Assembly (NCBI GenBank): GCA_964424555.1
Contig: CAYRIX010000002.1
Span: 1 to 64,000, forward strand
DNA: 64,000 nucleotides
DNA from: an uncultured Eubacteriales bacterium
Lineage (GTDB): Bacteria > Bacillota > Clostridia > Oscillospirales > Acutalibacteraceae
Direction of reading: 5' to 3'
The translations under genes were made by a program, and so were the position numbers. Positions 1 through 37,340 of this stretch are shown here, one piece after another. A model generated the notes under the pieces. The model was not told where the DNA came from. It searched no databases and saw nothing but the letters and a program-made list of their open reading frames with translations. The first letter of the stretch is position 1. Every line of letters starts with the position of its first letter.

Positions 1-303
1 CTGCCTCAAAGTTTGCCAAAGGAACTGCTCCTTCGGTCTGGGTGTGGTCGATCCATGTTGCGAAGCGGACGGTCGTTCCCTTTATACTGTCTGCTATTGT
101 TGCATACGGATCGAAGTTCTCCCACTCGGTACCTTGAACGCCTGAAGGCTTGGTTGCAATAACCTCGCTGTTGTTAGCGTCTCCCGTATTGGAAGCCTGC
201 GATGAGGTGGTGTCCTTATCGCCACCGCCACATGCGGTCAGGGCAAGAACGAGCATGCACATAGCAAAAACTAAGCACAAAGCTCTCTTAATGCCGGTTT
301 TCA
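1..303 (-). CDS. ABC transporter substrate-binding lipoprotein (N-terminal part; gene continues past the window start)
   Basis: Minus-strand ORF missing from the ORF track. ATG is the complement of 301-303, preceded by GGAGGAA. N-terminus MKTGIKRALCLVFAMCMLVLALTACGGG has a lipobox. The VRFATWIDHTQ segment is typical of family-1 sugar SBPs. Confidence 0.55.
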
Positions 304-497
304 TAAAAATTCCTCCTAAATGTATTGTAGAATGTACAGTGCTTCTGTATTCGGCCTCACAACAGATCAAAAAGACACAAGCACCCATACTTCTTTTTTA
401 TAATATCAAATATAAATCGGGTTTTCAATAAAGTTTTTAATCTTTCTTCCGAAAAAATAACCAAATTTCAACCCGATTTATTGTTGATATTTCAGTA

Positions 498-1508
498 TTA
501 ACCCGTGATACCTACACGGTCGATACTCTTGACGAACTTTTTCTGAAGAATTAGATAGACAATGAGTATCGGAATGATGAACATAAAGCAACCTGCCATC
601 ATGATAGCTATTCTCAACGGGTCATCACCTGAAAGCCTCAGTGTTCCGATAGCTTCGGCCGAGGTTATCTCGCTGAGCTTAACTGCCAGCGGCCACTTCT
701 CTGCGTAAAGGTACATCGAAGCCAACTGATAGTCATTCCAATGCCAAATAAGCGAGAAGACGGTAACTGTAGTGATAACAACGCTGGAGGACGGAAGTGC
801 AATTCTGATATAGGTCTTAAGAGGACCTGCACCATCGATCCAAGCTGCTTCCTCAAGCTCCTTGGGAAGTCCCTTAAAGAACTGAGTGTAGATGTAAATT
901 ATGATACCCGAACGGATGCCAACGCCCAATACTGCAGGCAACCAGAAGGTCCACACAGAGTTGAGAACATTGGGTCTTAGATCGATTCCTGTAAGGTCGT
1001 TAATCACGCCGAGCAATCCCAGAAAATCGAGCTTTGAGTAGTTCATGAATATCGGCAGCATCATCATCTGTGTAGGAACGAGGATGAGGAGGAACATGAA
1101 GAATGTGAGCACTCTCTTCTCCTTAAACTCGAAACGTGCCATACCGTATGCGCACAGTGAACAGCTGATGATCTGAATGCCTGCAGATACGATCTCGTAC
1201 AAAATCGTGCTCCAGATAGCACTGCCGTACTTCATAACATGCCATGCATATTCAAAGTTTTCTAAAGTGACATCCGAGGTTATCCAAATGATAGACGGGT
1301 CATAGAAGGAATCTCTTGTTCTGATTGCCGAGCTTATCATGTAGAACAGAGGATACAGGATTATGTATCCTATAGCAATAAGAACAACGTAGCGGAGAAG
1401 CGAAGTGAGAACTCCGTTCGCCTTAATCACTGCCTTGTAGCGGGATTCTTTGGTAGAATTTTTTGCTTTGTCATACAAGCCTTTTACTCTGCTTATAATG
1501 TTTCCCAT
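498..1508 (-). CDS. carbohydrate ABC transporter permease (MalG/LplC-like)
   Basis: Six predicted TM segments. EAA loop ELEEAAWIDGAGPLKTYIRIALP. Stop overlaps the start of the next permease. Confidence 0.85.
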   Translation of the reverse strand: MGNIISRVKGLYDKAKNSTKESRYKAVIKANGVLTSLLRYVVLIAIGYIILYPLFYMISSAIRTRDSFYDPSIIWITSDVTLENFEYAWHVMKYGSAIWSTILYEIVSAGIQIISCSLCAYGMARFEFKEKRVLTFFMFLLILVPTQMMMLPIFMNYSKLDFLGLLGVINDLTGIDLRPNVLNSVWTFWLPAVLGVGIRSGIIIYIYTQFFKGLPKELEEAAWIDGAGPLKTYIRIALPSSSVVITTVTVFSLIWHWNDYQLASMYLYAEKWPLAVKLSEITSAEAIGTLRLSGDDPLRIAIMMAGCFMFIIPILIVYLILQKKFVKSIDRVGITG

Positions 1509-2470
1509 TAGCTTCTACCTCCTGTATCCCAACGTTTTAAGAACAGCTTAGAGAATATAAACATAATCAATGCCATACATACGCCGACGATTATGAAGTA
1601 TATCCAAAGCATTGCAGATGCTGTACCGTAGCTTGAAGCGGCACCTCTCATAAGGGTGTAAGCCTGTGTCATAACCGCATTATTCTTAGCAGTGACCAGC
1701 TCAACCATTGTGAAGACGATAACCAGAATAAGCGTTCTGGACAGCATGGGGAGTGTGATAAACCAGAACTCCTCCCACTTTGTAGCACCCTCGACCTTAG
1801 AGACCTCATAGAGTGAATCTGGGATCGACTGCATACCTGAGATAAAGAGTACTATCTGGATACCGCTGTTCCAAACAAGGTTGAAAATATTGTTGAGCAA
1901 GCTGGCAAAGAAGGTTCCGATCTGTGTGGGCAAGGACAACCATGCTATAATGTCCTCTACCTTAAGCATGTTAGATGCGAACGAATCGGAAACACCTGCC
2001 GAAGAAATATCGCTTGTGGTGGTTTTAAACAGCAGGTCAATAACTACACCCGAAGCGATGATAACGGGAAGGAAGTAAAGACCTCTGAAGAAAAGTCTTC
2101 CACGGAACTTCTGATTAAGAAGCAGAGCCAAAATAAGGCTTATGATTACGATAACGGGAAGAGAGCCCGCCATGGAACCCAAGGAAGCCCATACATTATT
2201 TTGGAAGTTCGCATTGGTGTTCCATGCGTAATCGAAGTTCTTCATGCCTGCAAATTCGAAGTGGTATTCACCGCCCGAAAAGCTTACGTCACAGAAGGCA
2301 TAATAGAAAGACTGGAAGAGCGGAACCACAAAGAACAGGAGAAGACCCAGCTCCCAATGGAGAACAAAACGGCGTCCGTATGTGCTCTTGAGTGACTCTA
2401 TACCTCTGTATTTCTTCTTTTTCTTCAAAGAATTAAGAGGGGCACTGTTTTTCATATTATCTGCTGTCAT
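1508..2470 (-). CDS. carbohydrate ABC transporter permease (MalF/LplB-like)
   Basis: Polytopic. Basic N-terminus KKKKYRG then LplB-like TM1. Conserved EVSKVEGATKWEEFWFITLPM loop. Confidence 0.8.
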   Translation of the reverse strand: MTADNMKNSAPLNSLKKKKKYRGIESLKSTYGRRFVLHWELGLLLFFVVPLFQSFYYAFCDVSFSGGEYHFEFAGMKNFDYAWNTNANFQNNVWASLGSMAGSLPVIVIISLILALLLNQKFRGRLFFRGLYFLPVIIASGVVIDLLFKTTTSDISSAGVSDSFASNMLKVEDIIAWLSLPTQIGTFFASLLNNIFNLVWNSGIQIVLFISGMQSIPDSLYEVSKVEGATKWEEFWFITLPMLSRTLILVIVFTMVELVTAKNNAVMTQAYTLMRGAASSYGTASAMLWIYFIIVGVCMALIMFIFSKLFLKRWDTGGRS

Positions 2471-2473
2471 CTC

Positions 2474-4771
2474 TTATGCCCCCTTTACTGTAAAATCGCT
2501 TGCTGCGACCGTGATATCGCCCTCGGTGTAATCGGTGCTTCCGTAGTTTACGTATACGGTAACACCGTTGTCGAAGGTCGTAACTCTGACATCATCTGTG
2601 AGTATCTTATGATCGACTATCTTAGCACCGTTGACCGAATCAAAATAGCTCTTGTATTCTGCAATATTTGCTTCAATGGTCTCTCGAGCGCCACGCTCGA
2701 TCGTATCGTCCCAATACACAGAGCCGTAGAAAACATTCTGTGCCGAGGTAATAAGGTCGGTATCGTACTCACCGATAAGGGTATAGGTAAGACCTAAGCC
2801 CGACTCAACCGCCTTAAGAAGATTGGTGCGGTCGTTAGTGGAGAGATTGATCGAGGTACCCGACATGGAAACCGAGCCCTTAAAGACTATCTGATAGAAA
2901 GGAACGTCTGCCTCAAAAGAACGGTACTTTGAGGACTGCGTCGGTACATCGTATACATGAGAGCAAAGTGCTGCTGCAAAGGCATTGGCGTCACTGCCCG
3001 CTACCTTGTAGCCATCGGTCTTGTATGCACCGATGATTGCACCGACCTGATCGTCGGTATGTGCTCTTGAGTAGTATTGCTCATCGCAGTAATCAGAGTA
3101 GGTAATACTTGTCAAAGTATCAAGGCTGATACCCGGAAGCTTCCATTCTTTTGCAGCCTCGTTAATATTGGAGGCGACCTCGGACCACTTGGAACGAGAT
3201 ACAAGATAGTATGTGCGAAGCTTCTTATTAGGCGTTCTCAGGTTGTAGGAGAAGTAGTTAAGCTCGGTAAAGCTGCCGTTAGCTGCATCTGCCTTTCCAA
3301 AGCCAGTGGAAACTCCGCCGCCCGAACTGCTGAAGCGAACCATGTCAAAGTTCATGTAAAGGTTGATACCGTTACTGTTGGAATAGTCAACAAGCTTTTT
3401 GATATCGTCCTCATCGCCGAATACTTCATTTATCTCATAGTTACCTGCGACAACTCCGATATCGTTACCGCTTGAACCGAAGCCCACAAGGTTGACGTTA
3501 ATATTGTCAAGCTTGGTTACTTCCTTGACATCCTTAACGATATCGTAAGCCTGTTCAAGAGTGGTTGCCGAAAGCATTGCATCACTCGGAATACCGAAAT
3601 GGAATTCCTTAGTCTCAATACCGCCAACCAGCTTAAGGTTAAGCAACGAATCGTTGGACTTTTCACCGCTCAAAGAGCCTGTTTCGGTGAGATAATCACG
3701 GTAGGTATTTGCCATACCTACATATGAAGCATCGTCTCCGTAGAGCGGGTAGAAGCCGACACAGATCTTGTCGCTTGTAAAAGCATCCGCAAAGATCTTA
3801 GTCTTGACTATGGTTGAGGTGAACAGTGACTGAATGACCTCCTGATAGCCTCTGATATGGAACTCAGAGCTGATATAGGAGTAGCCCGTGAGCTTCTGAG
3901 CTATAACAGTGCTGATACGTGCCGTCTCTGCACCCTCTTTGATGATTGCACAAACACCCTTATCGCCGTTGACTGCGCCGTATACGGGCATTCTGACGGT
4001 CTCGGTGTTGGTTGCATTTTCAAACTGTGTAACGTTAGCATCCTGTCCATATACTACCTCGGTAAGCTCAACAGCAGCATCCTTAGTATTGTCGACTACG
4101 GGACGAACCAAAGCGCCTGAGCCCGAGGGAGTGAACAGATAGTAGCCATCGGTATCCGCATTATTATTGGAGACCGAGCAGAAGAACGGTGCAATGGTCA
4201 CACCACAAACATTGTAATCGTCATTCTCGGTAATTCCGTAAGGATCGACCGAAACATCGACACCTTTATCGGTAAGGGTAAAGGTAACGGGTACAGAAAA
4301 CGCACGGTCCTCAAAGTAACAGGTCATCACAAGACCATCTGCAATAGCCTTGACCGAATATGTACCCTTGTCGATAGACATGGCATAAGCGTTTGTCTCT
4401 TCTTCAAGGAGGTTGGAGGTTGCATAGTACTGTACAATGATGGGAGACTTTACTCTCGGGTGAGCGCTGACCTTTGAGCCCTCACCGTCAACACTGTAGT
4501 CGTACTGCGAGTTGAGCGCATCCTCGGGGATGTAGCTCCACTCGGTCTCGGTCACCTTGTCAAAAAGGATAACGCATTCATCATCTGCATTCCAGATCAA
4601 GCTGTAACGGTCGTTCTCGGCCACACAGGTGGTCTCGAGACGGTCAAGCTCTTCGGGAATTGCAAAATATTCTGCAGCTGCACGATCACTCGAGCAACCA
4701 ACTCCGCAAAGGAGGAGGGCCGAACAAAGCAGCAAACACAGAACTGAACCTAAAATTCGTTTGAACTTCAT
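2474..4771 (-). CDS. large secreted lipoprotein, unknown function (possibly glycan-active)
   Basis: Signal peptide plus lipobox (LLLCGVGCSS). 765 aa with no TM segments. Strong RBS AAGGAGGAG. Lies between the two permease pairs. Confidence 0.7.
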   Translation of the reverse strand: MKFKRILGSVLCLLLCSALLLCGVGCSSDRAAAEYFAIPEELDRLETTCVAENDRYSLIWNADDECVILFDKVTETEWSYIPEDALNSQYDYSVDGEGSKVSAHPRVKSPIIVQYYATSNLLEEETNAYAMSIDKGTYSVKAIADGLVMTCYFEDRAFSVPVTFTLTDKGVDVSVDPYGITENDDYNVCGVTIAPFFCSVSNNNADTDGYYLFTPSGSGALVRPVVDNTKDAAVELTEVVYGQDANVTQFENATNTETVRMPVYGAVNGDKGVCAIIKEGAETARISTVIAQKLTGYSYISSEFHIRGYQEVIQSLFTSTIVKTKIFADAFTSDKICVGFYPLYGDDASYVGMANTYRDYLTETGSLSGEKSNDSLLNLKLVGGIETKEFHFGIPSDAMLSATTLEQAYDIVKDVKEVTKLDNINVNLVGFGSSGNDIGVVAGNYEINEVFGDEDDIKKLVDYSNSNGINLYMNFDMVRFSSSGGGVSTGFGKADAANGSFTELNYFSYNLRTPNKKLRTYYLVSRSKWSEVASNINEAAKEWKLPGISLDTLTSITYSDYCDEQYYSRAHTDDQVGAIIGAYKTDGYKVAGSDANAFAAALCSHVYDVPTQSSKYRSFEADVPFYQIVFKGSVSMSGTSINLSTNDRTNLLKAVESGLGLTYTLIGEYDTDLITSAQNVFYGSVYWDDTIERGARETIEANIAEYKSYFDSVNGAKIVDHKILTDDVRVTTFDNGVTVYVNYGSTDYTEGDITVAASDFTVKGA

Positions 4772-4787
4772 TATAATCTCCTCCTTC

Positions 4788-6971
4788 TTAGAATAGTTTG
4801 AGTATCTCGGTATAAATGGTACCTACAAATCCTCCAAGCTGCTGCAACAGAACTGCAACGGCGATAAGCAGGAATATTACTATGGCACAACCGAACAGGG
4901 TCAGCAGTGTAGTACCGATGAACTTCATTACACCGTAGTCATGCACGATTATCGAGCCTGCGGTCAACAGAATCAATGTATATCCTGTGCAAATTACGGT
5001 CAAAACGCTGAGGAAAGCAGCCTCGTCGGGAACAAGGATGTTCGAGCAAATGATGTAAATAAGGCTTCCCAGCAACGACGGAATAAGGCTGTAGCTTATT
5101 ACCGTGAAAATTTCCTTGATCTTACCCTTACCGCTGAACAGTGTACATACTGCCCAGTTAGTTACGGTCCACAGAATAACCAGACCTGCTGTTTTGGCAA
5201 GGATCAAAAGTGCGTTGTAGCTGGACGGGTCGAAATATGTGAATGCGAAGCCGCCCATTGTTGTTTCCATGACGTCGAAGACGTAATAGAGAGCAATTAT
5301 CACGAGACATATGGGAATCGAGGTAAGACCCTTCTCCTTCATATCACGGAAGTTCTCGAAGGGATGTGTAATCATGGTTGCGGCAAGGTGAGCCTTCTCG
5401 TTCTTGATAAGTCTTACCTTCTTCTTGGTGGAGTAAACCAACAGAGCAATAAGAGCTGCTATCAAAACAACTGCAACAATAATTACCAGCGTGAAGTTTT
5501 CACGCAACCACTCGGTACGTACGCTGTCAAAAGCGAGAGCATATGTCTCACGGTCGTAGCCCTGCTCAGCAAGCTCTATAGACTTATTCATGTAGGTTGC
5601 CGAAAGCTCAGCATCCTCGGTAGTCTGACCCATTGCGTAGTAAGCTCTTGCAAGACCTGCGTAGGCCATCTGACAGTTGCGGTCAGCGGCAAGCACATCG
5701 GTCCACTCCTGCATGGCTTCCTCGTAATCGCCGACAACAGTCTTAGCCTGAGCCGTCTTGATGAGCTTTCCGTGCTCGGTAATATTGAACACGGTAACGG
5801 TATCCTGATTGTTATCAGTGATAATTACCGACTGGGTAGCGAGATTGTAGCTGATAGAACTGGGGTTGTAGAAGGTTCCGTCCTGAAGGCCGCCCTTAAG
5901 ACCGCCACCGAATGCCGAAACAAGGTTACATTCGCTATCATAAATATATATTCTGCCGTAAGTAGCATCGATGGTATAAACGAAACCGTCGTTATCTGCT
6001 GCAACACCAATCAAGCTCTGAGTACGCAAGCTCTTAGTGGTGGGGTTGCTGCCAACCTCGTCATCAACGAAGTTAATGCTGTCAGAGGGCAAAATATTGG
6101 TTCCGCCCGGATTAAGGCGCTTTATCTGAGCCGACTGACTTGTCGCACCGGTTGAGCTGGTTGCGGTATACACGAAGCCTTCGCCGTCAACCCAAAGGTC
6201 GGAGAAGGTGTACGGCAGAGAACGGGTCATCTCGGCACGCTTTTCGTTGTTCATGAACAATCTGTTCCACAGGGTGGTAAGTGCCTGTGTAAAGGTAGCG
6301 GGAACATCGTTAGCACCGTAGAAGCCAAGGAACTCATCCTCAGGTGAGTAAAGGATAGCACCGTAGTACGAACCGTTACTGAGAATGTAAACATATCCCT
6401 TTTGGTCAACTGCAACCTTGACGGGCTGATAGTTGAAGCCTGTGGGGATGAGGTGAGAATCCGGCAGAGTGTAAAGTCTTATAAGCTTGCCTTCAGCATC
6501 GCATTTAATAACACGCTGATGCTGGGTATCGGCAATATAGACGTTTTCAGCTTCATCAACAAAGATGCCCTTGGCCTTCAAGAAGTCTAATCTGGTGCCA
6601 TCCTCATCAAGAACATAGGAAAACTGGCTCTTAATATTATACTCTTCATCAAGGAGTAATACTCTGGACGCACCGCCGTCGAGAACATAGGTAATTCCCG
6701 AGTCTGATACATGAGCATCGTCGATAGTAGAGCTGGCCGAACAGCCAAGATCAAGAGCAGTCAGCACCTTGCCTGTTTCATACATAGGCTTGGTAGGAAC
6801 GACTCGGTTGGTCTGACCTGTAAAATTGTACCAATATGTGTAGGAATCATAGCCTATCTCGTCGGTCTTTTCAGAAACGGCTGAAACACCGATCACAGGG
6901 ACGAGCACGAGAACAGCCATCACACAAAGCAGGACACGGATAAGGAGCTTGCCAAAATTTGTTTTCTTCAT
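4788..6971 (-). CDS. NHL-repeat beta-propeller / TPR-like / Yip1-domain membrane protein
   Basis: Start re-set to MKKTNF (RBS AAGGAGGG, 7-nt spacer). N-terminal signal anchor. About six NHL-like blades (ENVYIADTQHQRVIKCD, KGYVYILSNGSYYGAILY, NDGFVYTIDATYGRIYIYD). A TPR-like helical segment. One TM segment followed by a five-TM Yip1-like C-terminal domain. Confidence 0.75.
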   Translation of the reverse strand: MKKTNFGKLLIRVLLCVMAVLVLVPVIGVSAVSEKTDEIGYDSYTYWYNFTGQTNRVVPTKPMYETGKVLTALDLGCSASSTIDDAHVSDSGITYVLDGGASRVLLLDEEYNIKSQFSYVLDEDGTRLDFLKAKGIFVDEAENVYIADTQHQRVIKCDAEGKLIRLYTLPDSHLIPTGFNYQPVKVAVDQKGYVYILSNGSYYGAILYSPEDEFLGFYGANDVPATFTQALTTLWNRLFMNNEKRAEMTRSLPYTFSDLWVDGEGFVYTATSSTGATSQSAQIKRLNPGGTNILPSDSINFVDDEVGSNPTTKSLRTQSLIGVAADNDGFVYTIDATYGRIYIYDSECNLVSAFGGGLKGGLQDGTFYNPSSISYNLATQSVIITDNNQDTVTVFNITEHGKLIKTAQAKTVVGDYEEAMQEWTDVLAADRNCQMAYAGLARAYYAMGQTTEDAELSATYMNKSIELAEQGYDRETYALAFDSVRTEWLRENFTLVIIVAVVLIAALIALLVYSTKKKVRLIKNEKAHLAATMITHPFENFRDMKEKGLTSIPICLVIIALYYVFDVMETTMGGFAFTYFDPSSYNALLILAKTAGLVILWTVTNWAVCTLFSGKGKIKEIFTVISYSLIPSLLGSLIYIICSNILVPDEAAFLSVLTVICTGYTLILLTAGSIIVHDYGVMKFIGTTLLTLFGCAIVIFLLIAVAVLLQQLGGFVGTIYTEILKLF

Positions 6972-6984
6972 ATCTTTGCCCTCC

Positions 6985-7947
6985 TTATTCCTTAATACCT
7001 GCACTACTCATGGATTCCATAACGTTACTCTGAGAAATCAGATAAACTATTATTGGCGGTAGCATGAGTATACACGTAACAGCCATAGCACTACCCGAAC
7101 GGGCGATACCGCCGGCCGTTATCTGTCCCATGATGGTCGGCAAGGTCTTCAGTGCCTCGCTGAAGATGGTACCGCCCGGTACCGATGCCCAAACATCACG
7201 GAAAGTAAAGAGGGTCAAGGTCAGCCACATCGGCTTAACAATGGGCATTACTATTCTCCAGAAGATTCTGAAATAGCCCGCACCGTCGATCTTGGCCGCT
7301 TCGAGCAATGCATTAGGTAACGCACCCTCCATATACTGTTTCATAAGGAAGACACCCATTGTTGACGCAAAGTGCGGCAGTATATATACCCAATATGTAT
7401 CAACTATGTGGATGCTTGTATATATAATGTAACGTGGGATGTTGAGGGTGTAACCGTTAAACAAAAGCGAAAACTGGATGATGTAGAATATTGTCTTCTT
7501 GAACTTGATATTCGACTTACACAGAACGAATGCAGCCATCGAAGCGATAACGACATAAAGGAAAGTCGTACCGAGGGTTACAAACAAGCTGTTGAAGACG
7601 TATCTTGACAACGGGATTCTAAGATTTGAAAGCAGCTCGGGCAGTGCGGCATAGTTCGCAAAGGTCGGGCGCTTAACGAAGAACTGGGGCGGGAAGATCA
7701 TGATCTCGTCCAAGGGCTTCAAGGATGTACAAATACAGTAGATGAGCGGCAGGATAGAGAAGCAGCCTGCTGCGATGATAAAGAAGAAGTAGAAGAAATT
7801 ACCTACTTTTGAGCGTGTATAACGCTTTGCCTCAGACTTCGAAGCACGTCTGCGCTTCGGAGCTTTGGTTTCGTTGACCGAGTCACGCAAAGCCTTGGCA
7901 CCGCTCGGTAAAATCAAAACTTCCTGTTTTCTTCTGAATAAACTCAC
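6985..7947 (-). CDS. carbohydrate ABC transporter permease (MalG/LplC-like)
   Basis: EAA loop LLEAAKIDGAGYFRIFWRIVMP. Polytopic. Confidence 0.85.
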   Translation of the reverse strand: MSLFRRKQEVLILPSGAKALRDSVNETKAPKRRRASKSEAKRYTRSKVGNFFYFFFIIAAGCFSILPLIYCICTSLKPLDEIMIFPPQFFVKRPTFANYAALPELLSNLRIPLSRYVFNSLFVTLGTTFLYVVIASMAAFVLCKSNIKFKKTIFYIIQFSLLFNGYTLNIPRYIIYTSIHIVDTYWVYILPHFASTMGVFLMKQYMEGALPNALLEAAKIDGAGYFRIFWRIVMPIVKPMWLTLTLFTFRDVWASVPGGTIFSEALKTLPTIMGQITAGGIARSGSAMAVTCILMLPPIIVYLISQSNVMESMSSAGIKE

Positions 7948-7959
7948 TATCCCACCTCC

Positions 7960-8877
7960 TTACTTTCCTGTCATATTGAGTAGTTTTCCTATCAATAGTC
8001 GGAAGACGACCATCATCAGGAATAGCACAACCGAGACCGATGACGCATAGCCCAGCTCGTATCGTACCGTACCAAGGTCCTGCATATGTGATACTATCGT
8101 ATCTGCCGCATAGCTGACGCTTGGGAAACCTGCAAGCTCTATCGCTATTGCGCTGATAGAGAATGCACTGGATATCTGCATAACAGCACTAAAGAGAAGC
8201 ATGTGCTTCATAGTGGGCAGGGTTATGTACCAAAGCTCCTGCCAACGGCTCTTGATACCGTCAATAGAGCCTGCTTCATAAAGCTCCTGATTGACGTTCT
8301 GCAAGCCTGAAATGTTGGAAAGGAAGGAAACACCCATGCTGGACCAAAGCTGAACTGCGATGATTATCGGCTTTATGTATTCAGCGGTCGACAGCCATGT
8401 AACAGGCTCGGTAATAAGACCGAGTGAAAGAAGTGCCGAGTTGATGTAACCGTAGCTGTCACTTGAGAAAGCAACCGTCCAAATGAAGTGTGCGTTACCG
8501 ACAAGTGCGGGAGCGTAGAACATGAAGGACAGAAGCGTACGGACCATCGGAGAAAATTCATTAATAAACCATGCAAGAACAAAGGAGAGAAGGAAGCCTG
8601 CAGGTCCGCAAATGATGGCGAATAACATAGTGTTCTTGAACACAACAGGGAAAACGTCGTCATCAAGGAACATTCTCATGTAGTTACCCAATCCTGCGAA
8701 GGAAGGGGAATTGACCATATCGAAGTTTGTAAAGCTGAGAACTATTGAAGAAGCTATCGGCAATACAAGGAAGACGATAAAGAAGATGAAGAACGGTGAA
8801 AGCATGATATATGACGGAAGCTGTTCACGCAATAAAGCTCTTCTTTTGATCTTTTTCAAATTTACACTGTTTTCCAT
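7960..8877 (-). CDS. carbohydrate ABC transporter permease (MalF/LplB-like)
   Basis: RBS GGAGGAGGG. LplB-like N-terminus. Conserved loop ELYEAGSIDGIKSRWQELWYITLP. Confidence 0.8.
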   Translation of the reverse strand: MENSVNLKKIKRRALLREQLPSYIMLSPFFIFFIVFLVLPIASSIVLSFTNFDMVNSPSFAGLGNYMRMFLDDDVFPVVFKNTMLFAIICGPAGFLLSFVLAWFINEFSPMVRTLLSFMFYAPALVGNAHFIWTVAFSSDSYGYINSALLSLGLITEPVTWLSTAEYIKPIIIAVQLWSSMGVSFLSNISGLQNVNQELYEAGSIDGIKSRWQELWYITLPTMKHMLLFSAVMQISSAFSISAIAIELAGFPSVSYAADTIVSHMQDLGTVRYELGYASSVSVVLFLMMVVFRLLIGKLLNMTGK

Positions 8878-8895
8878 ATATACCCTCCTCCTTTC

Positions 8896-11800
8896 TTACT
8901 TTTTATACTCTGAAATCTTACGTGCGATCTCATTGTCAGCAACTTCGCCCCACTCAAGCATGGCGTCTTTTTCGTTGCTTTCGTTATTGAGAACTGCCCA
9001 GTAAGCCTGATCGACTGCACGAGATACGTAGTAGCCGCCCGGCAGTTCGGGAAGCTCCTCGACCTTAGACCACTGCTCAAGCAGTATCTGGAGGTCGTCA
9101 GCATTCCAGGAATATGAGCTGAATGCCTCTTTGTTGGCAGTTGCAGTACGGGATACAACACCAAGTATAGACTCAACGTTATTATTGTATCTGAGCTGAG
9201 TGTCAGCCGAAGTCCACCAACAGATGAACTCCCATGCGCCATCCTTGTTGGGTGAACGCTTAACAACACCGCATCCGGTTCCCGATCCTGCGATGGAGTT
9301 ATTGATTCCGGTCATTTCGCCGGCCTCATCATAGACGGGATTGCCGGGGATAGTTGTGATCTTCCAGCGTCCCTGAATTTCAGGAGCTGCCTGAGTAAGC
9401 TGAGTATATGTGGTATAGCTCGAGATTCCCAAGGGAGCGGTACCTGTACGGAAACGGTTGTAGAAGTCGATCTGCTTTTCAATACCGTACTTGGTATAGA
9501 AGTCAGTCCACTGAGTAAACGCTGCTATAGCGTCGCCGCCTGTGAGATTGGTCTTGTTACGGCCGTCATTATAAAGAGTAACATCATTCTGGGTCAGCAT
9601 GGTCGGGAACATATGCAAGCTACCCATACCCGCATTGACCGTAGTAGTGGATGCTATCTTGGTGTACGGCACATAAGCGTCCATGTTATTACGCTGAAGA
9701 ATTGTGGCGGCATCAAGGAACTCGGTCCATGTCCAACCCAATCCGTCGTTGGCGGTGGCGGGATCTTCAATTCCAAGATCCTCAAATATATCGGTACGGT
9801 AGTACATTATAAAGAAGCCCTGAGTATCGGGGAGAGCAAACAACTGCATATCGCCCGTACCGTCATCGTACCAATAAGGAGTGGATGCATGGTCGTTTAC
9901 AATGTCAACATAATCGCCATTCTCGTCATATTTACCTTGGAAGCGCTTAAGAACGGTCTTGTAGTCCAACAGATATGTGGAGCCGTCATCTACAGTGGAG
10001 TACTTTGGATCTACCTCTGCCGAGAAATTAGTTAGATCATACAAAGCACCACGCATACCGAGGTTAACAGGATCGGTGCGGCTCATATGGAGTCTTATAT
10101 CAGGGAAGTTACCTGCAAGAAGACCGTTGATAAGCGAAGCGTTAACTATTTCAAGCTCAACGCCGATACCTGTCTCATAGGTGAACGAGTCCTGAATGAG
10201 GTTGCTCAGAACCTGTGTCTGATCACGTCCCCAGTTAACCCATATACGGACCGAGCCTCTGGCATCGGCCGCAACAGAGCCACCGATAGAGGTGAAATCA
10301 TCGGTAAAGGAGGCGAAGAAACGCTTACAGCTAAAGGCGAATGACTTACCGAAGGATGAGGTATTGTCCTTAAAGCCCTTGGACGGAGATGCAAGCTGCA
10401 TCTGATCAACGCTCAAAGGCATCGTCTTCATTTCATACAGCCAAGAACATACAGTGGTGTAGTTGGAATAGAAGTCCGATACATAGTTCTGAGCAGTGTA
10501 CTGGTTATCGTACATCTCCTTGAGAACACGGGCCATATTGTTCAATGCTGCGATGTATTTGTTGCTTCGGTCACCCGAAAGAGCCTTCATGTCCGAAGAA
10601 AGCTTGTTAAGGTCTTCATAGCAGCCGAGCAAGGTCTCTTGGAAGTTCGGTATCTGTCTGAACAGATCATAGTCACGGTTCGGGTCGGGAGAGTCACTGG
10701 TGATCATGATGATATCAATATAGGTATCACCGATAACATCAACAATCTCCTCGAGTCTTGAATAGAACTCAGCAGTCTCACCGAGGGTGACGGTAAGAGC
10801 AAAGGTGTGCGTACCCTTGGTAAGATAGAACTTATAAGGCTCTACCTTTTCTTCGCTTACTGTCTCACCTATAGTTTTGAAGCTCCAATCGGTGCAGTAG
10901 TCAAATCTGAGGTTCTTGCACTCCTCGAACGGAATTACTCCGTCGATAGCCAATGAGCGGTATGTGAAGCCGTCGATAATGGCAGCCTGCTTATAATTGA
11001 TGCCAAAGGTATACAGACCATCAGCAGGGACCTCGACCATCCATGTAATGGTCTCGCCGGGGACCTGCCAGTTAGTGCTACCTATGTAGTTAAGAATAGA
11101 CTTAACGGGGCTGTTGGGAGTAATATCCGACGAGCTGTTGTCTGCCTTAGCAACAAGCGAGTTGGTTGACTTAAGCCAAGCATCCTCACCCTCAAATTCG
11201 ATAACCTCGCCCGAATAATCGGCTTTGCCGTTATTGGCAGCCGAATACTCGTCGTAAGTAACAACAGTCTCGGGAACCTTTAATATAATACTTGCAAGGG
11301 CAACGGGCTCGTATACAGATTCAACAGTGATGGTGTGTTTGCCTGCAGTAAGCAATACCTTGTAGGGGTCAGCAACGACACCGACAGGATCTACTGCATA
11401 CTGTGTGACAAACTGACCGTACTCAACCTGCTCGGGAGTAAGCTCATTTCCGATGGTATCAACACGAACATCACCTGCAGGCTTGTCAGCTGTGGAACCG
11501 CTGTTTACAAACATGCGGGGCAAAGACAATGCCTCAAGACCGGAATAAAGATATTTACCGTCGATCTTAATACCAAGCTCAACAGGGCTGGTGCTGCTCT
11601 TGTCGTCAGAGGTATCTGCAGTGCCGCCTGTCTTGGTAAGAGGAAGGTATGTAAAAGCAAGATTATAAATACCGTCCTCAGGAACCTCTACCTCATAGGT
11701 AACATAGCCCTGCTGCTGGAAAGTAAGATTATCCCTCCATGTAAGACAGGTCTTGCTCTCCTTCTTCTGAGATACAGCGTCCAACAGGACCTCATACTGC

Positions 11801-12093
11801 TCCTGTGACAAAACACTGACAGTACCGTCGGCACCCTCGTACTCATGCTCGGCCGCTTCTACATAGTTCAGCGGATCGATAACTATGTCTTCCTTGGCAT
11901 AGCTGCTTGAGGATATGGATTCGAGGTACTTGACATACTCGTCTGACACATCGCCGCCAGTAACTGTGTTCTCGGTTACGGGAGCATCACTGTTTTGTAC
12001 TTCCTCCGCCGAGGCAGGAAGCACAGCAAAAAGCGATACCATGAGCACGGTTACAAGAACAATGGCCAGCAATCGGATTTTACCAGAATTCAT
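8896..12093 (-). CDS. extracellular solute-binding protein (family 1, LplA-like) fused to an N-terminal extension of about 550 aa with tandem beta-sandwich repeats
   Basis: Start re-set to MNSGKIRLLAIVL (ATG with RBS GGTGAAGAA). Signal peptide. Two internal repeats (YEVEVPEDGIYNLAFTY and WMVEVPADGLYTFGINY). C-terminal ~500 aa is a clear family-1 SBP (FALPDTQGFFIMYYRTDIFEDLGI). Confidence 0.75.
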   Translation of the reverse strand: MNSGKIRLLAIVLVTVLMVSLFAVLPASAEEVQNSDAPVTENTVTGGDVSDEYVKYLESISSSSYAKEDIVIDPLNYVEAAEHEYEGADGTVSVLSQEQYEVLLDAVSQKKESKTCLTWRDNLTFQQQGYVTYEVEVPEDGIYNLAFTYLPLTKTGGTADTSDDKSSTSPVELGIKIDGKYLYSGLEALSLPRMFVNSGSTADKPAGDVRVDTIGNELTPEQVEYGQFVTQYAVDPVGVVADPYKVLLTAGKHTITVESVYEPVALASIILKVPETVVTYDEYSAANNGKADYSGEVIEFEGEDAWLKSTNSLVAKADNSSSDITPNSPVKSILNYIGSTNWQVPGETITWMVEVPADGLYTFGINYKQAAIIDGFTYRSLAIDGVIPFEECKNLRFDYCTDWSFKTIGETVSEEKVEPYKFYLTKGTHTFALTVTLGETAEFYSRLEEIVDVIGDTYIDIIMITSDSPDPNRDYDLFRQIPNFQETLLGCYEDLNKLSSDMKALSGDRSNKYIAALNNMARVLKEMYDNQYTAQNYVSDFYSNYTTVCSWLYEMKTMPLSVDQMQLASPSKGFKDNTSSFGKSFAFSCKRFFASFTDDFTSIGGSVAADARGSVRIWVNWGRDQTQVLSNLIQDSFTYETGIGVELEIVNASLINGLLAGNFPDIRLHMSRTDPVNLGMRGALYDLTNFSAEVDPKYSTVDDGSTYLLDYKTVLKRFQGKYDENGDYVDIVNDHASTPYWYDDGTGDMQLFALPDTQGFFIMYYRTDIFEDLGIEDPATANDGLGWTWTEFLDAATILQRNNMDAYVPYTKIASTTTVNAGMGSLHMFPTMLTQNDVTLYNDGRNKTNLTGGDAIAAFTQWTDFYTKYGIEKQIDFYNRFRTGTAPLGISSYTTYTQLTQAAPEIQGRWKITTIPGNPVYDEAGEMTGINNSIAGSGTGCGVVKRSPNKDGAWEFICWWTSADTQLRYNNNVESILGVVSRTATANKEAFSSYSWNADDLQILLEQWSKVEELPELPGGYYVSRAVDQAYWAVLNNESNEKDAMLEWGEVADNEIARKISEYKK

Positions 12094-12192
12094 TTCTTCA
12101 CCTTCAAAAAAGAGATTTAAACAATGCCCCTTGCAAGAGCAACAAAGCGAATTTGCAGACAAATATCCACTTTGCATAATGTTCTACGTAGT

Positions 12193-12221
12193 ATTATCTA
12201 ACAAATCGGTCATTTTGTCAA
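12193..12221 (-). promoter_or_regulatory. sigma-A-type promoter for the ABC operon (TTGACA-17-GATAAT)
   Basis: Minus-strand reading TTGACAaaatgaccgatttgttaGATAAT, about 95 nt upstream of the 12093 ATG. Confidence 0.4.
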
Positions 12222-12498
12222 TAACAATTTAGCAAAAATATACGAAATTCGGCAAAAAATTTTTATTTTTTATACCAACACTTATATGCAATTTTCCTTA
12301 TTTAGGTTTCGAGAAGACCTTTTCGTTGTCATATTGCACAAATTTTATCGCCACCTCCCACATGATATTCGAGTCCCCAATCGCTATCTACGGTACATTG
12401 TTACGCTTTAAGCGACATATTATCTAACATGTCCGACTCTTTTAAATAATATATATTGCAAAATGGCCGATTGAATGTTGATTTTGACCAATATGCAC

Positions 12499-12527
12499 AA
12501 AAAATCCGAGCTGTTTTACAGCTCGGA
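12499..12527 (-). terminator. intrinsic terminator of eno
   Basis: 9-bp stem TCCGAGCTG/CAGCTCGGA overlaps the eno stop codon and is followed on the minus strand by UUUUUU. Confidence 0.5.
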
Positions 12528-13736
12528 CTCAATTTTCAGCAGTCGATTGTATTTTGAAGTGCGGTCGGTACGGCAGGGAGCTCCCGACTTTATATATTCT
12601 GCACCCACGCCCACCGCAAGGTCGGCAATGAAGGTATCCTCGGTCTCGCCCGAGCGGTGTGAGATAACGGCGGTATAGCCCGCCTGCTTGGCAATTTCAA
12701 TGACCTCAAGCGTTTCGGACAGCGTGCCTATCTGGTTAAGCTTAACCAGAACGGCGTTGGCTATTCCCTGCTCTATCCCGCTTTTCAGACGCTCGGGGTT
12801 GGTCACAAACAGATCATCTCCCACAAGCATTGCCCTGCCTGACAGCTTTTGGGTCATGGTCTTCCAGCCCGAGTAATCCTCCTCGCTCAAGCCGTCTTCT
12901 ACCGAGATAATAGGATAATCACGGATAAGCCCCGATATCTTCTCGGTCAGACTTTGTGATGTCAGCGTTTCGCCGCACTTCGGCAAGCGGTATTCCCCAT
13001 CCCTATACCATTCGCTCGAGGCAACATCAAGAGCGATCTTAACGTCATCGGTTGAATATCCTGCGGTGCTGATACCCTTGATTATATACTCTATGACCTC
13101 ACGGTCATCACGGAGATCGGGTGAGAAGCCGCCCTCGTCTCCGACACCCGTAGATTTCCCCGCCGCCTTGAGTACGGTGCCTAACGCATGGTATACCTCA
13201 GCGCCTGCTCTGAGCTTTTCTGAAAAGCTTCCTTTGGTCGGCACTATCATGAATTCCTGAATATCGATATTATTGGCTGCGTGCGCTCCGCCGTTAAGAA
13301 TGTTCATCATCGGAGTAGGGAGTCTTAGCCCGCTTATTCCACCCAGATAGCGGTATAAGGGCACTCGGTAGTGACGTGCCGAGGCACGTGCCACAGCCAT
13401 TGATACGGCCAACATGGCATTAGCACCCAAATGGCTTTTGTTGGGTGTTCCGTCGAGCTTTATCAACTCACGGTCTATCTGTTTTTGATTAAGAGTGCCT
13501 ATCTCACGCAGGCGGGGTGCAATAACCGTGTTTATGTTGTTGACCGCCTTGCTTACACCCTTTCCGCAATATCTCTCACCGCCGTCACGCAGCTCATGTG
13601 CCTCGAATTTTCCCGTGGAAGCACCCGACGGAGCTATAGCCACCGCACGACAGCCGTCGCTGAGCATTACCTCTGCCGCAACTGTCGGATTACCTCTTGA
13701 ATCCAATACCTCAAGACCCTTGACCTCGATTATCAC
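12516..13736 (-). CDS. eno: enolase (phosphopyruvate hydratase)
   Basis: N-terminus MIIEVKGLEVLDSRGNPTV and conserved enolase core (SHRSGETEDTFIADLAV). Confidence 0.95.
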   Translation of the reverse strand: MIIEVKGLEVLDSRGNPTVAAEVMLSDGCRAVAIAPSGASTGKFEAHELRDGGERYCGKGVSKAVNNINTVIAPRLREIGTLNQKQIDRELIKLDGTPNKSHLGANAMLAVSMAVARASARHYRVPLYRYLGGISGLRLPTPMMNILNGGAHAANNIDIQEFMIVPTKGSFSEKLRAGAEVYHALGTVLKAAGKSTGVGDEGGFSPDLRDDREVIEYIIKGISTAGYSTDDVKIALDVASSEWYRDGEYRLPKCGETLTSQSLTEKISGLIRDYPIISVEDGLSEEDYSGWKTMTQKLSGRAMLVGDDLFVTNPERLKSGIEQGIANAVLVKLNQIGTLSETLEVIEIAKQAGYTAVISHRSGETEDTFIADLAVGVGAEYIKSGAPCRTDRTSKYNRLLKIESEL

Positions 13737-13935: not shown

Positions 13936-14661
13936 ATGAGCTACGGTCAATACCTGATAGCTGGTCTCAAGGTCGAGATGGAGGTAAACGGAGAAATGCT
14001 TCGTTCACGAAGCGAGAAATACCGTACCGAATTCGACGGAGAGCCTGATATGGTCATCGTTCCGTCAAGAGAAAATCTTGATCGCATGCAGAGTGATTAT
14101 CCGAGGCTGTCACCCGACGCCGTGGAGTACCTCGGTACAGGCTGTATGTTTTATTACAGATTGCTCAGGTTTGATGGCTTCCTGCTTCACTCCTCGACCA
14201 TAAGCTACAACGGTAAAGCGTACATATTCACGGCCGACAGCGGTACGGGTAAGTCGACCCACACTTCACTCTGGCGTCAATATCTTGACGGTGTTGTTAT
14301 GATAAACGACGACAAGCCTGCCATCAAGCTCATTGACGGACAGTTTCAGGCCATTGGAACACCGTGGAGCGGAAAGACCGACCAGAATGCCGATATCTCG
14401 GTGCCTGTTGGCGGTGTTGTATTGCTCCACCGTGGCAGTGTAAACACCATCCGCCCTGCAACAACGCTCGAAGCAATACCCTTTCTGATGCGTCAGACAC
14501 AGGTGCCCTCTAAGCCCGAAACCGTTGATATGCTGACCAACCTGTTGGACAAGTTCCTGCGCCAGACCCCGATATATGTGCTGGAATGTGATATGAGTGA
14601 GGATGCCGTTAAAACGTCCTTTGAAGCTTTAACGGGAACAAAATACGAAAAAAGGAAATAA
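13936..14661 (+). CDS. HPr-kinase C-terminal-domain-like P-loop protein (standalone, hypothetical)
   Basis: RBS GGAGG. Mid-protein Walker A FTADSGTGKSTHTSLW followed by INDDKPAIKLIDGQFQAIGTPW. Motif order matches the HprK-C/PEPCK-like kinase fold. Confidence 0.6.
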   Translation: MSYGQYLIAGLKVEMEVNGEMLRSRSEKYRTEFDGEPDMVIVPSRENLDRMQSDYPRLSPDAVEYLGTGCMFYYRLLRFDGFLLHSSTISYNGKAYIFTADSGTGKSTHTSLWRQYLDGVVMINDDKPAIKLIDGQFQAIGTPWSGKTDQNADISVPVGGVVLLHRGSVNTIRPATTLEAIPFLMRQTQVPSKPETVDMLTNLLDKFLRQTPIYVLECDMSEDAVKTSFEALTGTKYEKRK

Positions 14662-14663
14662 TT

Positions 14664-15464
14664 ATGTCCGAATTTGAATTTAAAGAAGAAAATACCGAAG
14701 GGTCGGGAGATGCCCGATTTACCGATGTTATCGTCGGTCGAAACCCTGTTGCCGAGGCACTGCGCTCAGGCCGTGAGATAGATAAGCTGCTTATTGCCCA
14801 CGGTTCTATGAACGGTTCGGTAAGAGCATTGGTGGCAAAGTGCCGTGAAAAAGGCATTCCTGTCAAGGAGGTCGCTCCTCAAAAGCTTGATTTTATGAGC
14901 GGCGGAGCGTCACATCAAGGCGTAGCGTTGGTCGTTGCCTCTCATAAATACTGTGAAGTAAGCGATATATTGGAGCATGCTGCCGAAAAAGGAGAGGCTC
15001 CGTTTATTATAATCTGCGACGGAATAGAGGATCCTCACAATCTCGGCGCTATAATCCGTACTGCAGAGGCCTGCTCGGTTCACGGTATAATTATCCCGAA
15101 GCGTCGCAGTGCTTCCTTGAATGCCGTTGTTGCCAAAGCATCGGCCGGTGCCTTGGAGTATATGCATGTTGCACGTGTAACTAACATCACCTCATGCATT
15201 GAAGAACTTAAGGAGAAAGGTCTTTGGATCTATGCCGCCGACATGGACGGTCAGCCTTGGTGCTCGGTTGATTACAGAGGAGCCTGTGCGTTTGTTATAG
15301 GCTCGGAGGGCAGAGGAGTCAGTGCTCTTGTAAAAAAGAGCTGTGATGTCACTGTCGCAATGCCTATGATGGGCAAGATCAATTCTCTCAACGCTTCGGT
15401 AGCTGCCGGAGTGCTGATGTATGAAGCCGCAAGGCAAAAGCAAGGAATCAAGGCTAATAACTAA
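14664..15464 (+). CDS. rlmB: 23S rRNA (guanosine-2'-O)-methyltransferase RlmB (SpoU/TrmH family)
   Basis: RNPVAEALRSGREIDKLLIA N-terminal domain. SPOUT motifs DPHNLGAIIRTAEA and VIGSEGRGVS. Confidence 0.85.
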   Translation: MSEFEFKEENTEGSGDARFTDVIVGRNPVAEALRSGREIDKLLIAHGSMNGSVRALVAKCREKGIPVKEVAPQKLDFMSGGASHQGVALVVASHKYCEVSDILEHAAEKGEAPFIIICDGIEDPHNLGAIIRTAEACSVHGIIIPKRRSASLNAVVAKASAGALEYMHVARVTNITSCIEELKEKGLWIYAADMDGQPWCSVDYRGACAFVIGSEGRGVSALVKKSCDVTVAMPMMGKINSLNASVAAGVLMYEAARQKQGIKANN

Positions 15465-36800: not shown

Positions 36801-37340
36801 GAGCTCGTGAGAGGTACGGAATCCGTCGAAGAAGTTGATGAAAGGTACGCGGCCCTTGATGGTTGCAAGGTGAGCAACTGCACCGAGGTCCATAACCTCC
36901 TGAGTGTTGGTCTCAGCAAGCATTGCGAAACCGGTCTGACGGCAAGCATAAACGTCAGAATGGTCGCCGAATATGTTAAGAGCCTGAGAAGCTACGCAAC
37001 GTGCCGATACGTGGAATACGGAAGGCAGAAGTTCACCGGCGATCTTGTACATGTTGGGGATCATCAGAAGAAGACCCTGAGATGCGGTGTAGGTAGTGGT
37101 GAGAGCGCCTGCGTTCAACGAACCGTGAACGGTACCTGCAGCACCTGCTTCAGACTGCATTTCGGAAACCTTAACGGTGGTTCCGAAGATGTTCTTGAGG
37201 CCCTGAGCCGACCACATATCAACATAGTCTGCCATCGGGCTGGACGGTGTGATAGGATAAATACCTGCTACTTCGGTAAACGCATAGGATACGTGAGCAG
37301 CGGCATTGTTACCGTCCATGGTTTTCATTTTTCTTGCCAT
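33804..37340 (-). CDS. nifJ: pyruvate:ferredoxin (flavodoxin) oxidoreductase, single-polypeptide PFOR
   Basis: 1178 aa. N-terminus MARKMKTMDGNNAAAHVSYAFTEVAGIYPITPSS. Two 4Fe-4S ferredoxin CxxCxxCxxxCP motifs. TPP domain GGDGWAYDIGFGG. Strong GC3 codon bias. Confidence 0.97.
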   Translation of the reverse strand: MARKMKTMDGNNAAAHVSYAFTEVAGIYPITPSSPMADYVDMWSAQGLKNIFGTTVKVSEMQSEAGAAGTVHGSLNAGALTTTYTASQGLLLMIPNMYKIAGELLPSVFHVSARCVASQALNIFGDHSDVYACRQTGFAMLAETNTQEVMDLGAVAHLATIKGRVPFINFFDGFRTSHELQKIEVWDYEDLKEMCDMDAVDAFRKRALNPERPVMRGSHENGDIFFQHRESCNEYYDKLPAIVEEYMDKVNAKLGTDYKLFNYYGAPDADKVIIAMGSICDVAEEVIDYMLAAGEKVGLVKVRLYRPFVAEKLCEAIPATAKKIAVLDRTKEPGSLGEPLYLDVVAGLAACGRSAKVIGGRYGLGSKDTPPSSIFAVYDELKKDEPKAHFTLGINDDVTHLSLEEKPAPNTAAEGTIECKFWGLGGDGTVGANKDSIKIIGDHTDKYVQAYFQYDSKKTGGITISHLRFGDKPIKSPYYINKADFVACHNPSYVIKGYKMVNDVKPGGVFLINCQWTAEELDEHMPAEAKKYIAENNIQLYTVNAIDLAAQIGLGKRTNTVLQSAFFALSKVLPAEEAIGYMKEKAQKFMKKGKEIVEMNEKAIDAGATAFVKIDVPAAWANAVDTTVAEKSEGRDKLVKMVDNIMKPVGLMNGDSLPVSAFVDHADGTFEQGASAYEKRGVAVLVPEWNADTCAKCNKCAYVCPHATIRPFALDADELAKAPANMKKAPKPIVKTEYTYTLAVSPMDCMGCGVCIGVCPTNSLKMVAQDTQLEEQKSFDYCVANVTEKDGVAGSQNIIASQYKKPLLEFSGSCAGCAETAYARLVTQLFGDRMYISNATGCSSIWGGPAATSPYTVNAEGHGPAWANSLFEDNAEHGFGMYLGQKAVRARLIAQVEEMMASDKASAEFKAAAEEYLATVEDGDKNTAATKALVAELEKAAAQGCPTAPAILAEKEFLSKKSVWIFGGDGWAYDIGFGGVDHVLASGEDVNIMVFDTEVYSNTGGQASKASQIGQVAQFAAAGKAISKKSLSEIAMSYGYVYVAQIAMGADQNQTLKAIKEAEAYKGPSIIIAYSPCEMHSIKGGMVNCQNEMKKAVECGYWNMFRFNPALKAEGKNPFTIDSKPATADYKEFILGEARYSSLTRSFPERAEELFEKAAENAKAARAHLEKLQELYGK

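Follow-up and report, generated by a model that had tools for sequence, protein, structure and literature searches.

In eukaryotes, the Yip1/YIPF members of the Yip1 family (PF04893) are Golgi and endoplasmic reticulum proteins with a five-helix membrane core, whose cytosolic N-terminal region engages Rab GTPases, whereas bacteria are without Rab partners. A bacterial member of this family, YknW of the YknWXYZ system of Bacillus subtilis/amyloliquefaciens, is a polytopic protein encoded together with an ATP-binding cassette (ABC) transporter as a non-permease accessory, and it contacts the other subunits of the YknXYZ ABC complex and in this way modulates how the complex assembles (PMC4887032). 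YknW lacks an ectodomain and is partnered by a membrane-fusion protein and by YknYZ, an exporter of the MacB type, in a system that exports the SDP toxin or defends against it. An extracellular NHL beta-propeller is found in the Mycobacterium tuberculosis sensor PknD (PDB 1RWI/1RWL), in which it is coupled to a cytoplasmic Ser/Thr kinase. Gram-positive polysaccharide-utilisation loci with CUT1-type importers, e.g. of the MalEFG type, of which the Blautia producta beta-glucan locus is an example (PMC10318527), combine a solute-binding protein (SBP), MalF/MalG-like permeases, neighbouring glycoside hydrolases (GHs) and AraC regulators, without an ATPase gene in the locus. The gene analysed here lies in a 64,000-nucleotide stretch of contig CAYRIX010000002.1 from an uncultured bacterium of the Acutalibacteraceae (this whole stretch is called the window) and encodes a protein of 727 amino acids (aa), in which an NHL propeller, TPR-like helices and a transmembrane (TM) helix are joined to a Yip1 domain. 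Its NHL-TPR and Yip1 parts constitute the invariant centre of a cassette of 8-9 genes in Clostridia, Bacilli and Spirochaetes. The finding opens a view onto a widespread, uncharacterised uptake module and not onto an odd fusion of one genome.

Gene-order conservation, two-gene counterparts and architecture of the NHL/Yip1 protein

A word-indexed search retrieved 684 full-length homologues at E<=1e-5 among 8000 candidates scored, and the best 120 of these are ~700-770 aa long, all with a precomputed Yip1 match, most also with an NHL match, and all unnamed or 'hypothetical'; the public collection further contains a 100% identical protein of 727 aa (P0001). Scanning one genome per species, at least 462 loci with a relative were found, and all counts of gene order refer to the best 80 of them, which are nearly all from gut or rumen metagenome-assembled genomes (MAGs) labelled Acutalibacteraceae, Oscillospiraceae, Ruminococcaceae or Clostridia. 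A search for the same architecture and synteny in other genomes, as proposed in a preliminary description of this DNA, revealed the same order throughout: 65 of the 80 loci have the complete one-strand succession SBP1-permease A-permease B-NHL/Yip1-DUF5696-permease C-permease D, and the other 15 are contiguous sub-runs ended by contig ends, and none deviates, even where identity to the query protein is as low as 39%. In 35-41 of the 69 loci that include permease D, a second binding protein (SBP2) comes after it. Given this number of homologues and the gene order conserved in 80/80 loci, the gene at 4788-6971 is genuine and far beyond chance.

When the Yip1 part (residues 490-727) was compared with 1.84 billion cluster representatives, 1271 matches at E<=1e-3 were obtained, 91 of them at E<=1e-30, which fall into two main length classes of ~700 aa and ~205-234 aa, while intermediate lengths look like truncated gene calls. 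The short class consists of complete standalone Yip1 proteins, which also exceed the PF04893 cut-off. In seven loci (L089-L095), which include Paenibacillus castaneae, Treponema, Lachnoclostridium and Oscillospiraceae, the position of the window gene is held by two genes, encoding an NHL-TPR-TM protein (481-502 aa) and then a Yip1 protein (205-218 aa), followed by the DUF5696 gene, and the stop and start codons of the two genes overlap in 4/7 cases. The split NHL-TPR protein comprises a signal peptide, the propeller, the TPR region, a C-terminal TM helix and a Lys/Arg (K/R) tail, and linker 517-551 of the window protein corresponds to this tail plus the N-terminus of the Yip1 gene product (HPF..F motif). 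Since the same cassette elsewhere carries two adjacent genes at its place, the window protein is, as judged by alignment, the fused form, a gene fusion of adjacent, co-translated NHL-TPR-TM and Yip1 genes with its joint in this linker. Such a gene-fusion (Rosetta-stone) relationship argues that the NHL-TPR and Yip1 proteins work together physically. In a neighbour-joining tree of Yip1 domains, fused and split forms are intermixed with 13 parsimony changes; the tree is without support values and no number of fusions is derived from it.

Using a profile of the standalone Yip1 proteins, entries named 'YIP1 family protein' were found in Paenibacillus castaneae, P. alkaliterrae, P. camelliae, Cohnella, Bacillus sp., Treponema MAGs, Lachnoclostridium and Lachnospiraceae. 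All three loci inspected among these (P. castaneae, a Treponema from a JGI metagenome and Lachnoclostridium) contain the full cassette, and every component aligns full-length with the window proteins. The arrangement, which the preliminary description had singled out as not recognised, indeed appears to be undescribed, as searches of 8 million full texts, subscription-only literature being outside this scope, returned no description of DUF5696 (PF18952), of the combination of Yip1 with NHL or of the cassette. However, it is not rare, but represents in fused form a pair of genes that is widespread.

Domain assignments rest on Pfam, hydropathy and an AlphaFold2 (AF2) model built on 30 homologues (mean pLDDT 78.7, pTM 0.66). 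The Yip1 match (PF04893, E=3.6e-15, 56.7 bits vs a gathering score of 28.6) covers positions 3-172 of the 173 of the profile and residues 533-702 of the protein, its first 19 residues falling in linker 517-551. The model contains an N-terminal helix at 6-27, beta strands between 43 and 397 that build six blades of four strands each, a helical insert of poor prediction quality at ~221-252, six helices in 399-491, and five long helices in the Yip1 region (552-571, 587-611, 618-643, 648-677 and 681-726). The last TPR helix (474-491) is one non-helical residue away from TM helix 493-516, and because it runs almost straight into this helix, the ectodomain is predicted to be held close to the membrane surface. 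For NHL (PF01436), the whole protein scores 26.1 bits vs a cut-off of 20, with no single repeat passing alone; a family profile search matches the NHL proteins Thin (1.4e-19) and TRIM2 (6e-16), and the modelled propeller can be superposed as six four-stranded blades on solved NHL domains. TPR_19 scores 19.9 bits in the window protein (cut-off 25) and 26.8 bits in the homologue P0306, and consensus TPR proteins are among the matches of the family profile, at residues 407-455, where the E-values are inflated because the targets are themselves repetitive.

Ectodomain residues G204, F214, G216, G219, V223, Y477, F481 and R485, among others, are invariant across cassettes, and the last three form a juxtamembrane motif of the stalk (Y477..F481...R485) that is invariant across phyla. 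Aromatic-rich conserved motifs include YxYxY, the residues Y44, Y46 and W47, and G-S-Y-Y-G-A at residues 200-205. No invariant His, Glu, Cys or Lys exists in the propeller in the homologue alignment, and its conserved Asp residues correspond, by eye, to canonical per-blade NHL positions. Three fused homologues, P0289 (1030 aa), P0306 (897 aa) and P0339 (1000 aa), have an insert of 170-300 aa in the N-terminal propeller region, which has no Pfam match and may be an added binding module.

Hydropathy peaks are observed at residues 9-27 (within a hydrophobic segment 9-31), at 494-512 and at the Yip1 helices. The N-tail MKKTNFGK of the window protein has three K/R and loop 517-551 has eight, as compared to zero in the predicted outside loops. 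Among 30 homologues, the N-tail has a net charge of +2.2 and the first 15 ectodomain residues of -2.6, loop 517-551 averages 6.8 K/R with a net charge of +3.6, and outside loops have 0-0.5 K/R (0.1 in loop 572-588, 0.0 in loop 644-649). The N-terminus is probably a cleavable signal peptide, since its hydrophobic segment ends in a conserved V-S-A|V site, with Ala at -1 in 29/30 homologues, and Val at -3 in 20/30 or Val/Ala/Ile at -3 in 27/30. Due to the positive-inside charge pattern, hydropathy and signal peptide, the propeller and the TPR helices are placed by prediction outside the cytoplasmic membrane, and linker 517-551 and the N-terminus of the five-TM-helix Yip1 domain in the cytoplasm, in keeping with the K/R-rich segment that precedes this domain and its K/R-poor outside loops. 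The architecture set out in the preliminary description is thereby borne out, as the N-terminal hydrophobic segment, six NHL blades, TPR-like helices, one TM helix and a five-helix C-terminus are all present; neither the unrelated C-terminal fold nor the cytoplasmic propeller that it had named as refuting outcomes was encountered, the former being excluded by the PF04893 score.

Concerning the gene call, the gene is on the minus strand, a detail absent from the earlier account, with 727 uninterrupted codons from ATG 6971 and 738 from GTG 7004. A Shine-Dalgarno (SD) sequence AAGGAGG is positioned 8 nt 5' of ATG 6971. The GTG 7004 start was rejected on account of this SD sequence, the N-termini of homologues and an overlap with the end of the upstream permease B gene, and a plus-strand reading of 4788-6971 was rejected, as its translation is full of stops.

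The import cassette and its genomic context

What had been taken for a simple sugar ABC operon contains instead two permease pairs, two binding proteins and a GH129-like DUF5696 protein (Table 1), and the NHL/Yip1 gene sits between the two different permease pairs A/B and C/D. Permeases A and C share only a short weak match and permeases B and D only 20% identity, and hence the pairs are not the result of a recent duplication; permease B is 84-98% identical in close relatives. The components of a CUT1-type system are found twice, as SBP1 with permeases A/B and as permeases C/D with SBP2, in each case without the cognate ATPase. No sugar-type ABC ATPase is encoded in the 64-kb window, in which an ABC-F protein (39804-41687) is the sole ABC ATPase, nor in any related locus inspected. 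CUT1-type systems in Firmicutes usually share an ATPase encoded elsewhere. From SBP1 to permease D, all genes are on the same strand with intergenic gaps of -1 to 18 nt, and no terminator-like site occurs at the gene boundaries in the window, consistent with the co-transcription with sugar-type permeases that had been predicted.

Table 1. Features of the NHL/Yip1 protein and of the surrounding cassette (window coordinates)
Feature	Position	Strand	Basis and remarks
NHL-TPR-TM-Yip1 fusion protein, 727 aa	4788..6971	minus	open reading frame (ORF) and translation; range includes stop codon 4788-4790
N-terminal segment, residues 1-31	6879..6971	minus	hydropathy; basic tail, hydrophobic core, V-S-A|V site
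Six-bladed NHL beta-propeller, residues 41-398, predicted extracytoplasmic	5778..6851	minus	low-confidence helical insert 221-252
TPR-like helical stalk, residues 399-492	5496..5777	minus	AF2 helices 399-491, consensus-TPR matches
TM helix, residues 493-516	5424..5495	minus	hydropathy peak 3.39
Basic, predicted cytoplasmic linker (fusion joint), residues 517-551	5319..5423	minus	8 K/R; alignment with split forms
Five-TM Yip1 domain, residues 552-727	4791..5318	minus	PF04893 and AF2 helices
Promoter-like site TTGACA-17-GATAAT upstream of SBP1	12193..12221	minus	11/12 consensus matches; consensus match only
SBP1, giant solute-binding protein, 1065 aa from ATG 12093	8896..12093	minus	signal peptide, start and SD, C-terminal SBP_bac_1
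Permease A, MalF-like	7960..8877	minus	BPD_transp_1; EAA motif at residue 201
Permease B, MalG-like	6985..7947	minus	weak BPD_transp_1; EAA motif at residue 216
DUF5696 protein, 765 aa, probable lipoprotein, GH129/GH101-like glycosidase fold	2474..4771	minus	DUF5696 E=3.5e-128
Permease C, second MalF-like	1508..2470	minus	BPD_transp_1; EAA motif at residue 222
Permease D, second MalG-like	498..1508	minus	BPD_transp_1 E=3.4e-14; EAA motif at residue 220
SBP2, first 101 aa of ordinary-sized binding protein, truncated by window start	1..304	minus	lipoprotein signal LTAC|GGG

The best promoter-like site of the region precedes the first cassette gene. Between this site and SBP1 lies a ~90-nt leader (12094-12186, minus strand) with a terminator-like hairpin at 12125-12141 followed by a T-rich run, which could be an attenuator; a scan of window positions 1-13000 with Rfam gave no match, this leader included. 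A second promoter-like site, TTGAAA-17-TATTAT with extended TG, is located at 400-428 (minus strand) in the 194-nt gap between permease D and SBP2, and suggests that SBP2 may be independently expressed as well. In two related loci (L001 and L004), the binding protein encoded after permease D is 70-73% identical to the SBP2 fragment.

In SBP1, Pfam recognizes SBP_bac_1 at residues 765-994 of the 1093-aa ORF, i.e. in the last third only. No Pfam family could be assigned to the preceding extension of ~600-700 aa, even with relaxed thresholds on the N-terminal 640 aa, and this extension is conserved full-length in the Paenibacillus, Treponema and Lachnoclostridium orthologues. By eye, residues ~30-700 show two repeats (…YEVEVPEDGIYNL…, …WMVEVPADGLYTF…) of a pattern resembling beta-sandwiches or carbohydrate-binding modules (CBMs) and a helical region.

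The folds closest to DUF5696 are those of GH129, as in the NagBb alpha-N-acetylgalactosaminidase (5WZN) and the Zobellia 3,6-anhydro-D-galactosidase (5OPQ), and GH101. Identity to them amounts to only 13-15%, a fold-level likeness without a sequence-level match, and searches of PDB sequences with DUF5696, as single sequence and as profile, returned nothing significant. Of the acidic residues considered for a putative active site, only D560 is invariant across phyla, and D476, E656 and D/E244 are mostly conserved. The DUF5696 protein of split-type cassettes has 853-938 aa, as compared to 765, and an extra N-terminal region (L091:10646-13462, L094:10667-13228, L095:10677-13253), and those of L091 and L092 have a faint DUF1995 match. 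The mode of anchoring differs by lineage, being a lipoprotein, a TM helix or a signal peptide.

The genes around the cassettes differ from locus to locus, and most are of the carbohydrate-active kind. Among 100 ORFs just upstream, 25 encode GH16 enzymes, 13 AraC-type regulators and 10 enolase, the latter being the upstream neighbour in the window's own clade (L001-L011, L015), whereas in more distantly related cassettes this position is occupied by genes of the GH16 or AraC type. Downstream, AraC regulators (9/85 ORFs), large Flg_new surface proteins, GH16, GH36, GH78 and GH2 are encountered. The Paenibacillus locus has a pair of a Cache histidine kinase and an AraC response regulator on one side and GH32/GH43 genes on the other; that of Treponema is flanked by GH5 and GH130, and that of Lachnoclostridium by GH43 genes, with an AraC regulator. 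DUF5696 stays constant beside these very different carbohydrate-active enzymes (CAZymes). A constant uptake core with variable enzymes is the pattern of polysaccharide-utilisation loci (PULs), and from this context we infer that the cargo is a glycan. Some of the best 80 loci stem from the same assembly, with seven assemblies contributing two or three paralogous cassettes each (L024/L030/L066; L072/L077/L080; L035/L059; L021/L074; L054/L078; L057/L076; L037/L075), which may be likened to the expansion of utilisation loci in Bacteroidota.

The window locus is without an adjacent regulator, and an enolase gene is situated upstream (12516-13736, minus strand). Because the rest of the window consists of housekeeping genes, such as those for enolase, IF-2, PFOR, SecA and MetRS, the cassette is regarded as chromosomal and not obviously mobile. 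The PFOR gene (33804-37340, minus strand, 1178 aa, strong Pfam match) is mirrored by a 1183-aa ORF without a family match at 33837-37388 on the plus strand, which is strikingly long, but probably a codon-bias shadow. A 961-aa ORF at 15485-18370 (plus strand), without a Pfam match at E<=1e-5, is preceded by the co-oriented ORFs 13936-14661 and 14664-15464.

Proposed role of the NHL/Yip1 protein

With high probability, the NHL/Yip1 protein is a dedicated accessory subunit of the import cassette. That it serves more specifically as the non-catalytic scaffold or tether of a two-transporter glycan-import machine is a proposition with about an even chance of being correct. According to it, the mature protein, after probable cleavage of the signal peptide, would expose its six-bladed propeller close to the outer face of the membrane, carried by a TPR stalk that is short and rigid, and would be anchored by one TM helix fused to the five-helix Yip1 bundle. 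This bundle could pack laterally against the ABC permease dimers, and the NHL/TPR ectodomain could bind membrane-tethered partners of the cassette, namely the GH129-like DUF5696 protein and/or the giant SBP1. Oligosaccharide capture and processing would thereby be kept beside both importers, with the protein playing an assembly-modulating role like that of YknW.

A structural hub is suggested by the nature of its modules, as NHL and TPR domains are predominantly protein-interaction modules. At the same time, the most conserved ectodomain motifs are identical across cassettes with different CAZymes, which is more readily explained by a constant protein partner than by a site specific for the substrate. 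The lack of invariant His, Glu, Cys and Lys in the propeller argues for a hub rather than an enzyme, the lack of a cytoplasmic output domain for a hub rather than a signaller, and the behaviour of YknW, the studied bacterial Yip1 protein, points in the same direction. Hence, among the roles put forward in the preliminary description, a scaffold fits best, while that of a sensor or regulator loses ground, given the missing output domain, the bare K/R tail of the split form and the separate regulators.

Several points weigh against this assignment. The physical contacts and the scaffold role are what we infer from genes and sequences. The precedent is loose, since YknW partners a MacB-type exporter and not type I importers. 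Inter-domain geometry of the AF2 model is of moderate confidence (pTM 0.66). In addition, the YxYxY and GSYYGA motifs could bind sugars, as a platform that recognises a chemical feature shared by all substrates.

This last point leads to the alternative that survives best, although it is rather unlikely, in which the propeller, perhaps with the TPR region, captures the oligo- or polysaccharide directly at the surface and passes it on to DUF5696 or the binding proteins, in a manner similar to that of surface glycan-binding proteins in Bacteroides PULs. Such a function would suit the setting of the locus, with GH16 genes making up 25/100 upstream neighbours and AraC, GH36, GH78, GH2, GH32, GH43 and GH5/GH130 genes in the flanks, as well as the conserved aromatic-rich motifs (Y44, Y46, W47 and G-S-Y-Y-G-A 200-205), and the inserted domain of 170-300 aa in some homologues is as expected of substrate-adapting modules. 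However, cassettes beside very different CAZymes have their most conserved ectodomain motifs in common, where a substrate-specific site should diverge, and Pfam scans revealed no CBM or lectin family.

A more improbable alternative is that the ectodomain senses substrate or the state of the envelope and, via the Yip1 domain, regulates the transporter or signals to a regulator, comparable to the NHL ectodomain and kinase of PknD. AraC-type regulators are frequent neighbours (13/100 upstream, 9/85 downstream), yet they are not constant in the cassette; the window locus has enolase upstream and no adjacent regulator, and Paenibacillus has a separate Cache histidine kinase and AraC-type response regulator. 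The protein itself has no cytoplasmic signalling domain, its sole sizeable cytoplasmic segment being the 35-residue basic linker, and in the split form nothing but a K/R tail follows the TM helix of the NHL-TPR protein.

It is very improbable that the propeller is a lyase- or lactonase-type enzyme acting on the substrate prior to import. A weak SGL/gluconolactonase-like Pfam match, below the cut-off, and virginiamycin B lyase among the Foldseek matches would speak for such an activity, but the top structural matches are non-enzymatic NHL domains, and the invariant His/Glu/Asn/Cys constellation of metal-dependent propeller enzymes is missing, the invariant polar residues appearing to be the repeat-structural Asp. 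An unrelated membrane protein incidentally located inside a sugar operon can practically be dismissed, as the order is kept in 80/80 loci and across Clostridia, Bacilli and Spirochaetes.

Taking the scaffold role further, it may tentatively be proposed, though with less assurance than that role itself, that the whole cassette encodes an ancient, cross-phylum multi-subunit glycan-import machine, in which two ABC cores, the ~1000-aa SBP, SBP2 and the GH129-like protein would be coupled by the NHL-TPR/Yip1 hub, and which would be re-used with different enzymes for different polysaccharides as a cytoplasmic-membrane counterpart of the Sus utilisome. If true, a function in nutrient uptake would be assigned to a bacterial Yip1 domain for the first time. 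A hub function would, if true, define a new ABC importer architecture with two permease pairs and tethered extracytoplasmic partners, and make bacterial Yip1 domains general organisers of ABC complexes. Physiologically, the Oscillospirales (Acutalibacteraceae, Ruminococcaceae and their relatives) rank among the major degraders of fibre in the guts of humans and ruminants, and to our knowledge their glycan uptake is much less understood than that of Bacteroidota. The three invariant core proteins of this widespread cassette (NHL-TPR, Yip1 and DUF5696) are without a described function, and the presence of the cassette in cultivable Paenibacillus species makes the question accessible to experiment.

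Comparison with described systems

Compared with YknW, the window protein is associated with a different set of partners, namely type I importer permeases in two pairs, which have EAA loops, together with SBP_bac_1 binding proteins and a protein resembling GHs, and no gene for a membrane-fusion protein or a MacB-like protein is present in the cassette. Since the class of the partner transporter differs, it does not belong to a YknW-type system. With PknD it shares an extracytoplasmic propeller, here a predicted one, joined to a TM helix, but its membrane part is a Yip1 bundle and there is no kinase or other output domain, and hence it is not a PknD-type sensor. In comparison with eukaryotic Yip1 proteins, the large extra domain is predicted to be extracytoplasmic and only a 35-residue basic linker precedes the Yip1 domain. 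Thus, Yip1 membership denotes a fold or domain family here and not the eukaryotic trafficking function.

By its operon the cassette belongs to the CUT1-like ABC sugar importers, from whose loci it differs by the doubled permease pair, a first SBP of ~1000 aa and the invariant core of NHL-TPR, Yip1 and DUF5696. The Sus-like utilisomes of Bacteroidota offer a functional analogy only, since in both cases a transporter is co-encoded with tethered binding and GH-like proteins and paralogous loci are repeated with variable enzymes. The TonB-dependent outer-membrane transporter of the Sus utilisome is unrelated to the ABC importers of the cassette. The building blocks and the logic of an ABC-importer locus are known, whereas the architecture of the NHL/Yip1 protein and the conserved trio of accessory proteins are new.

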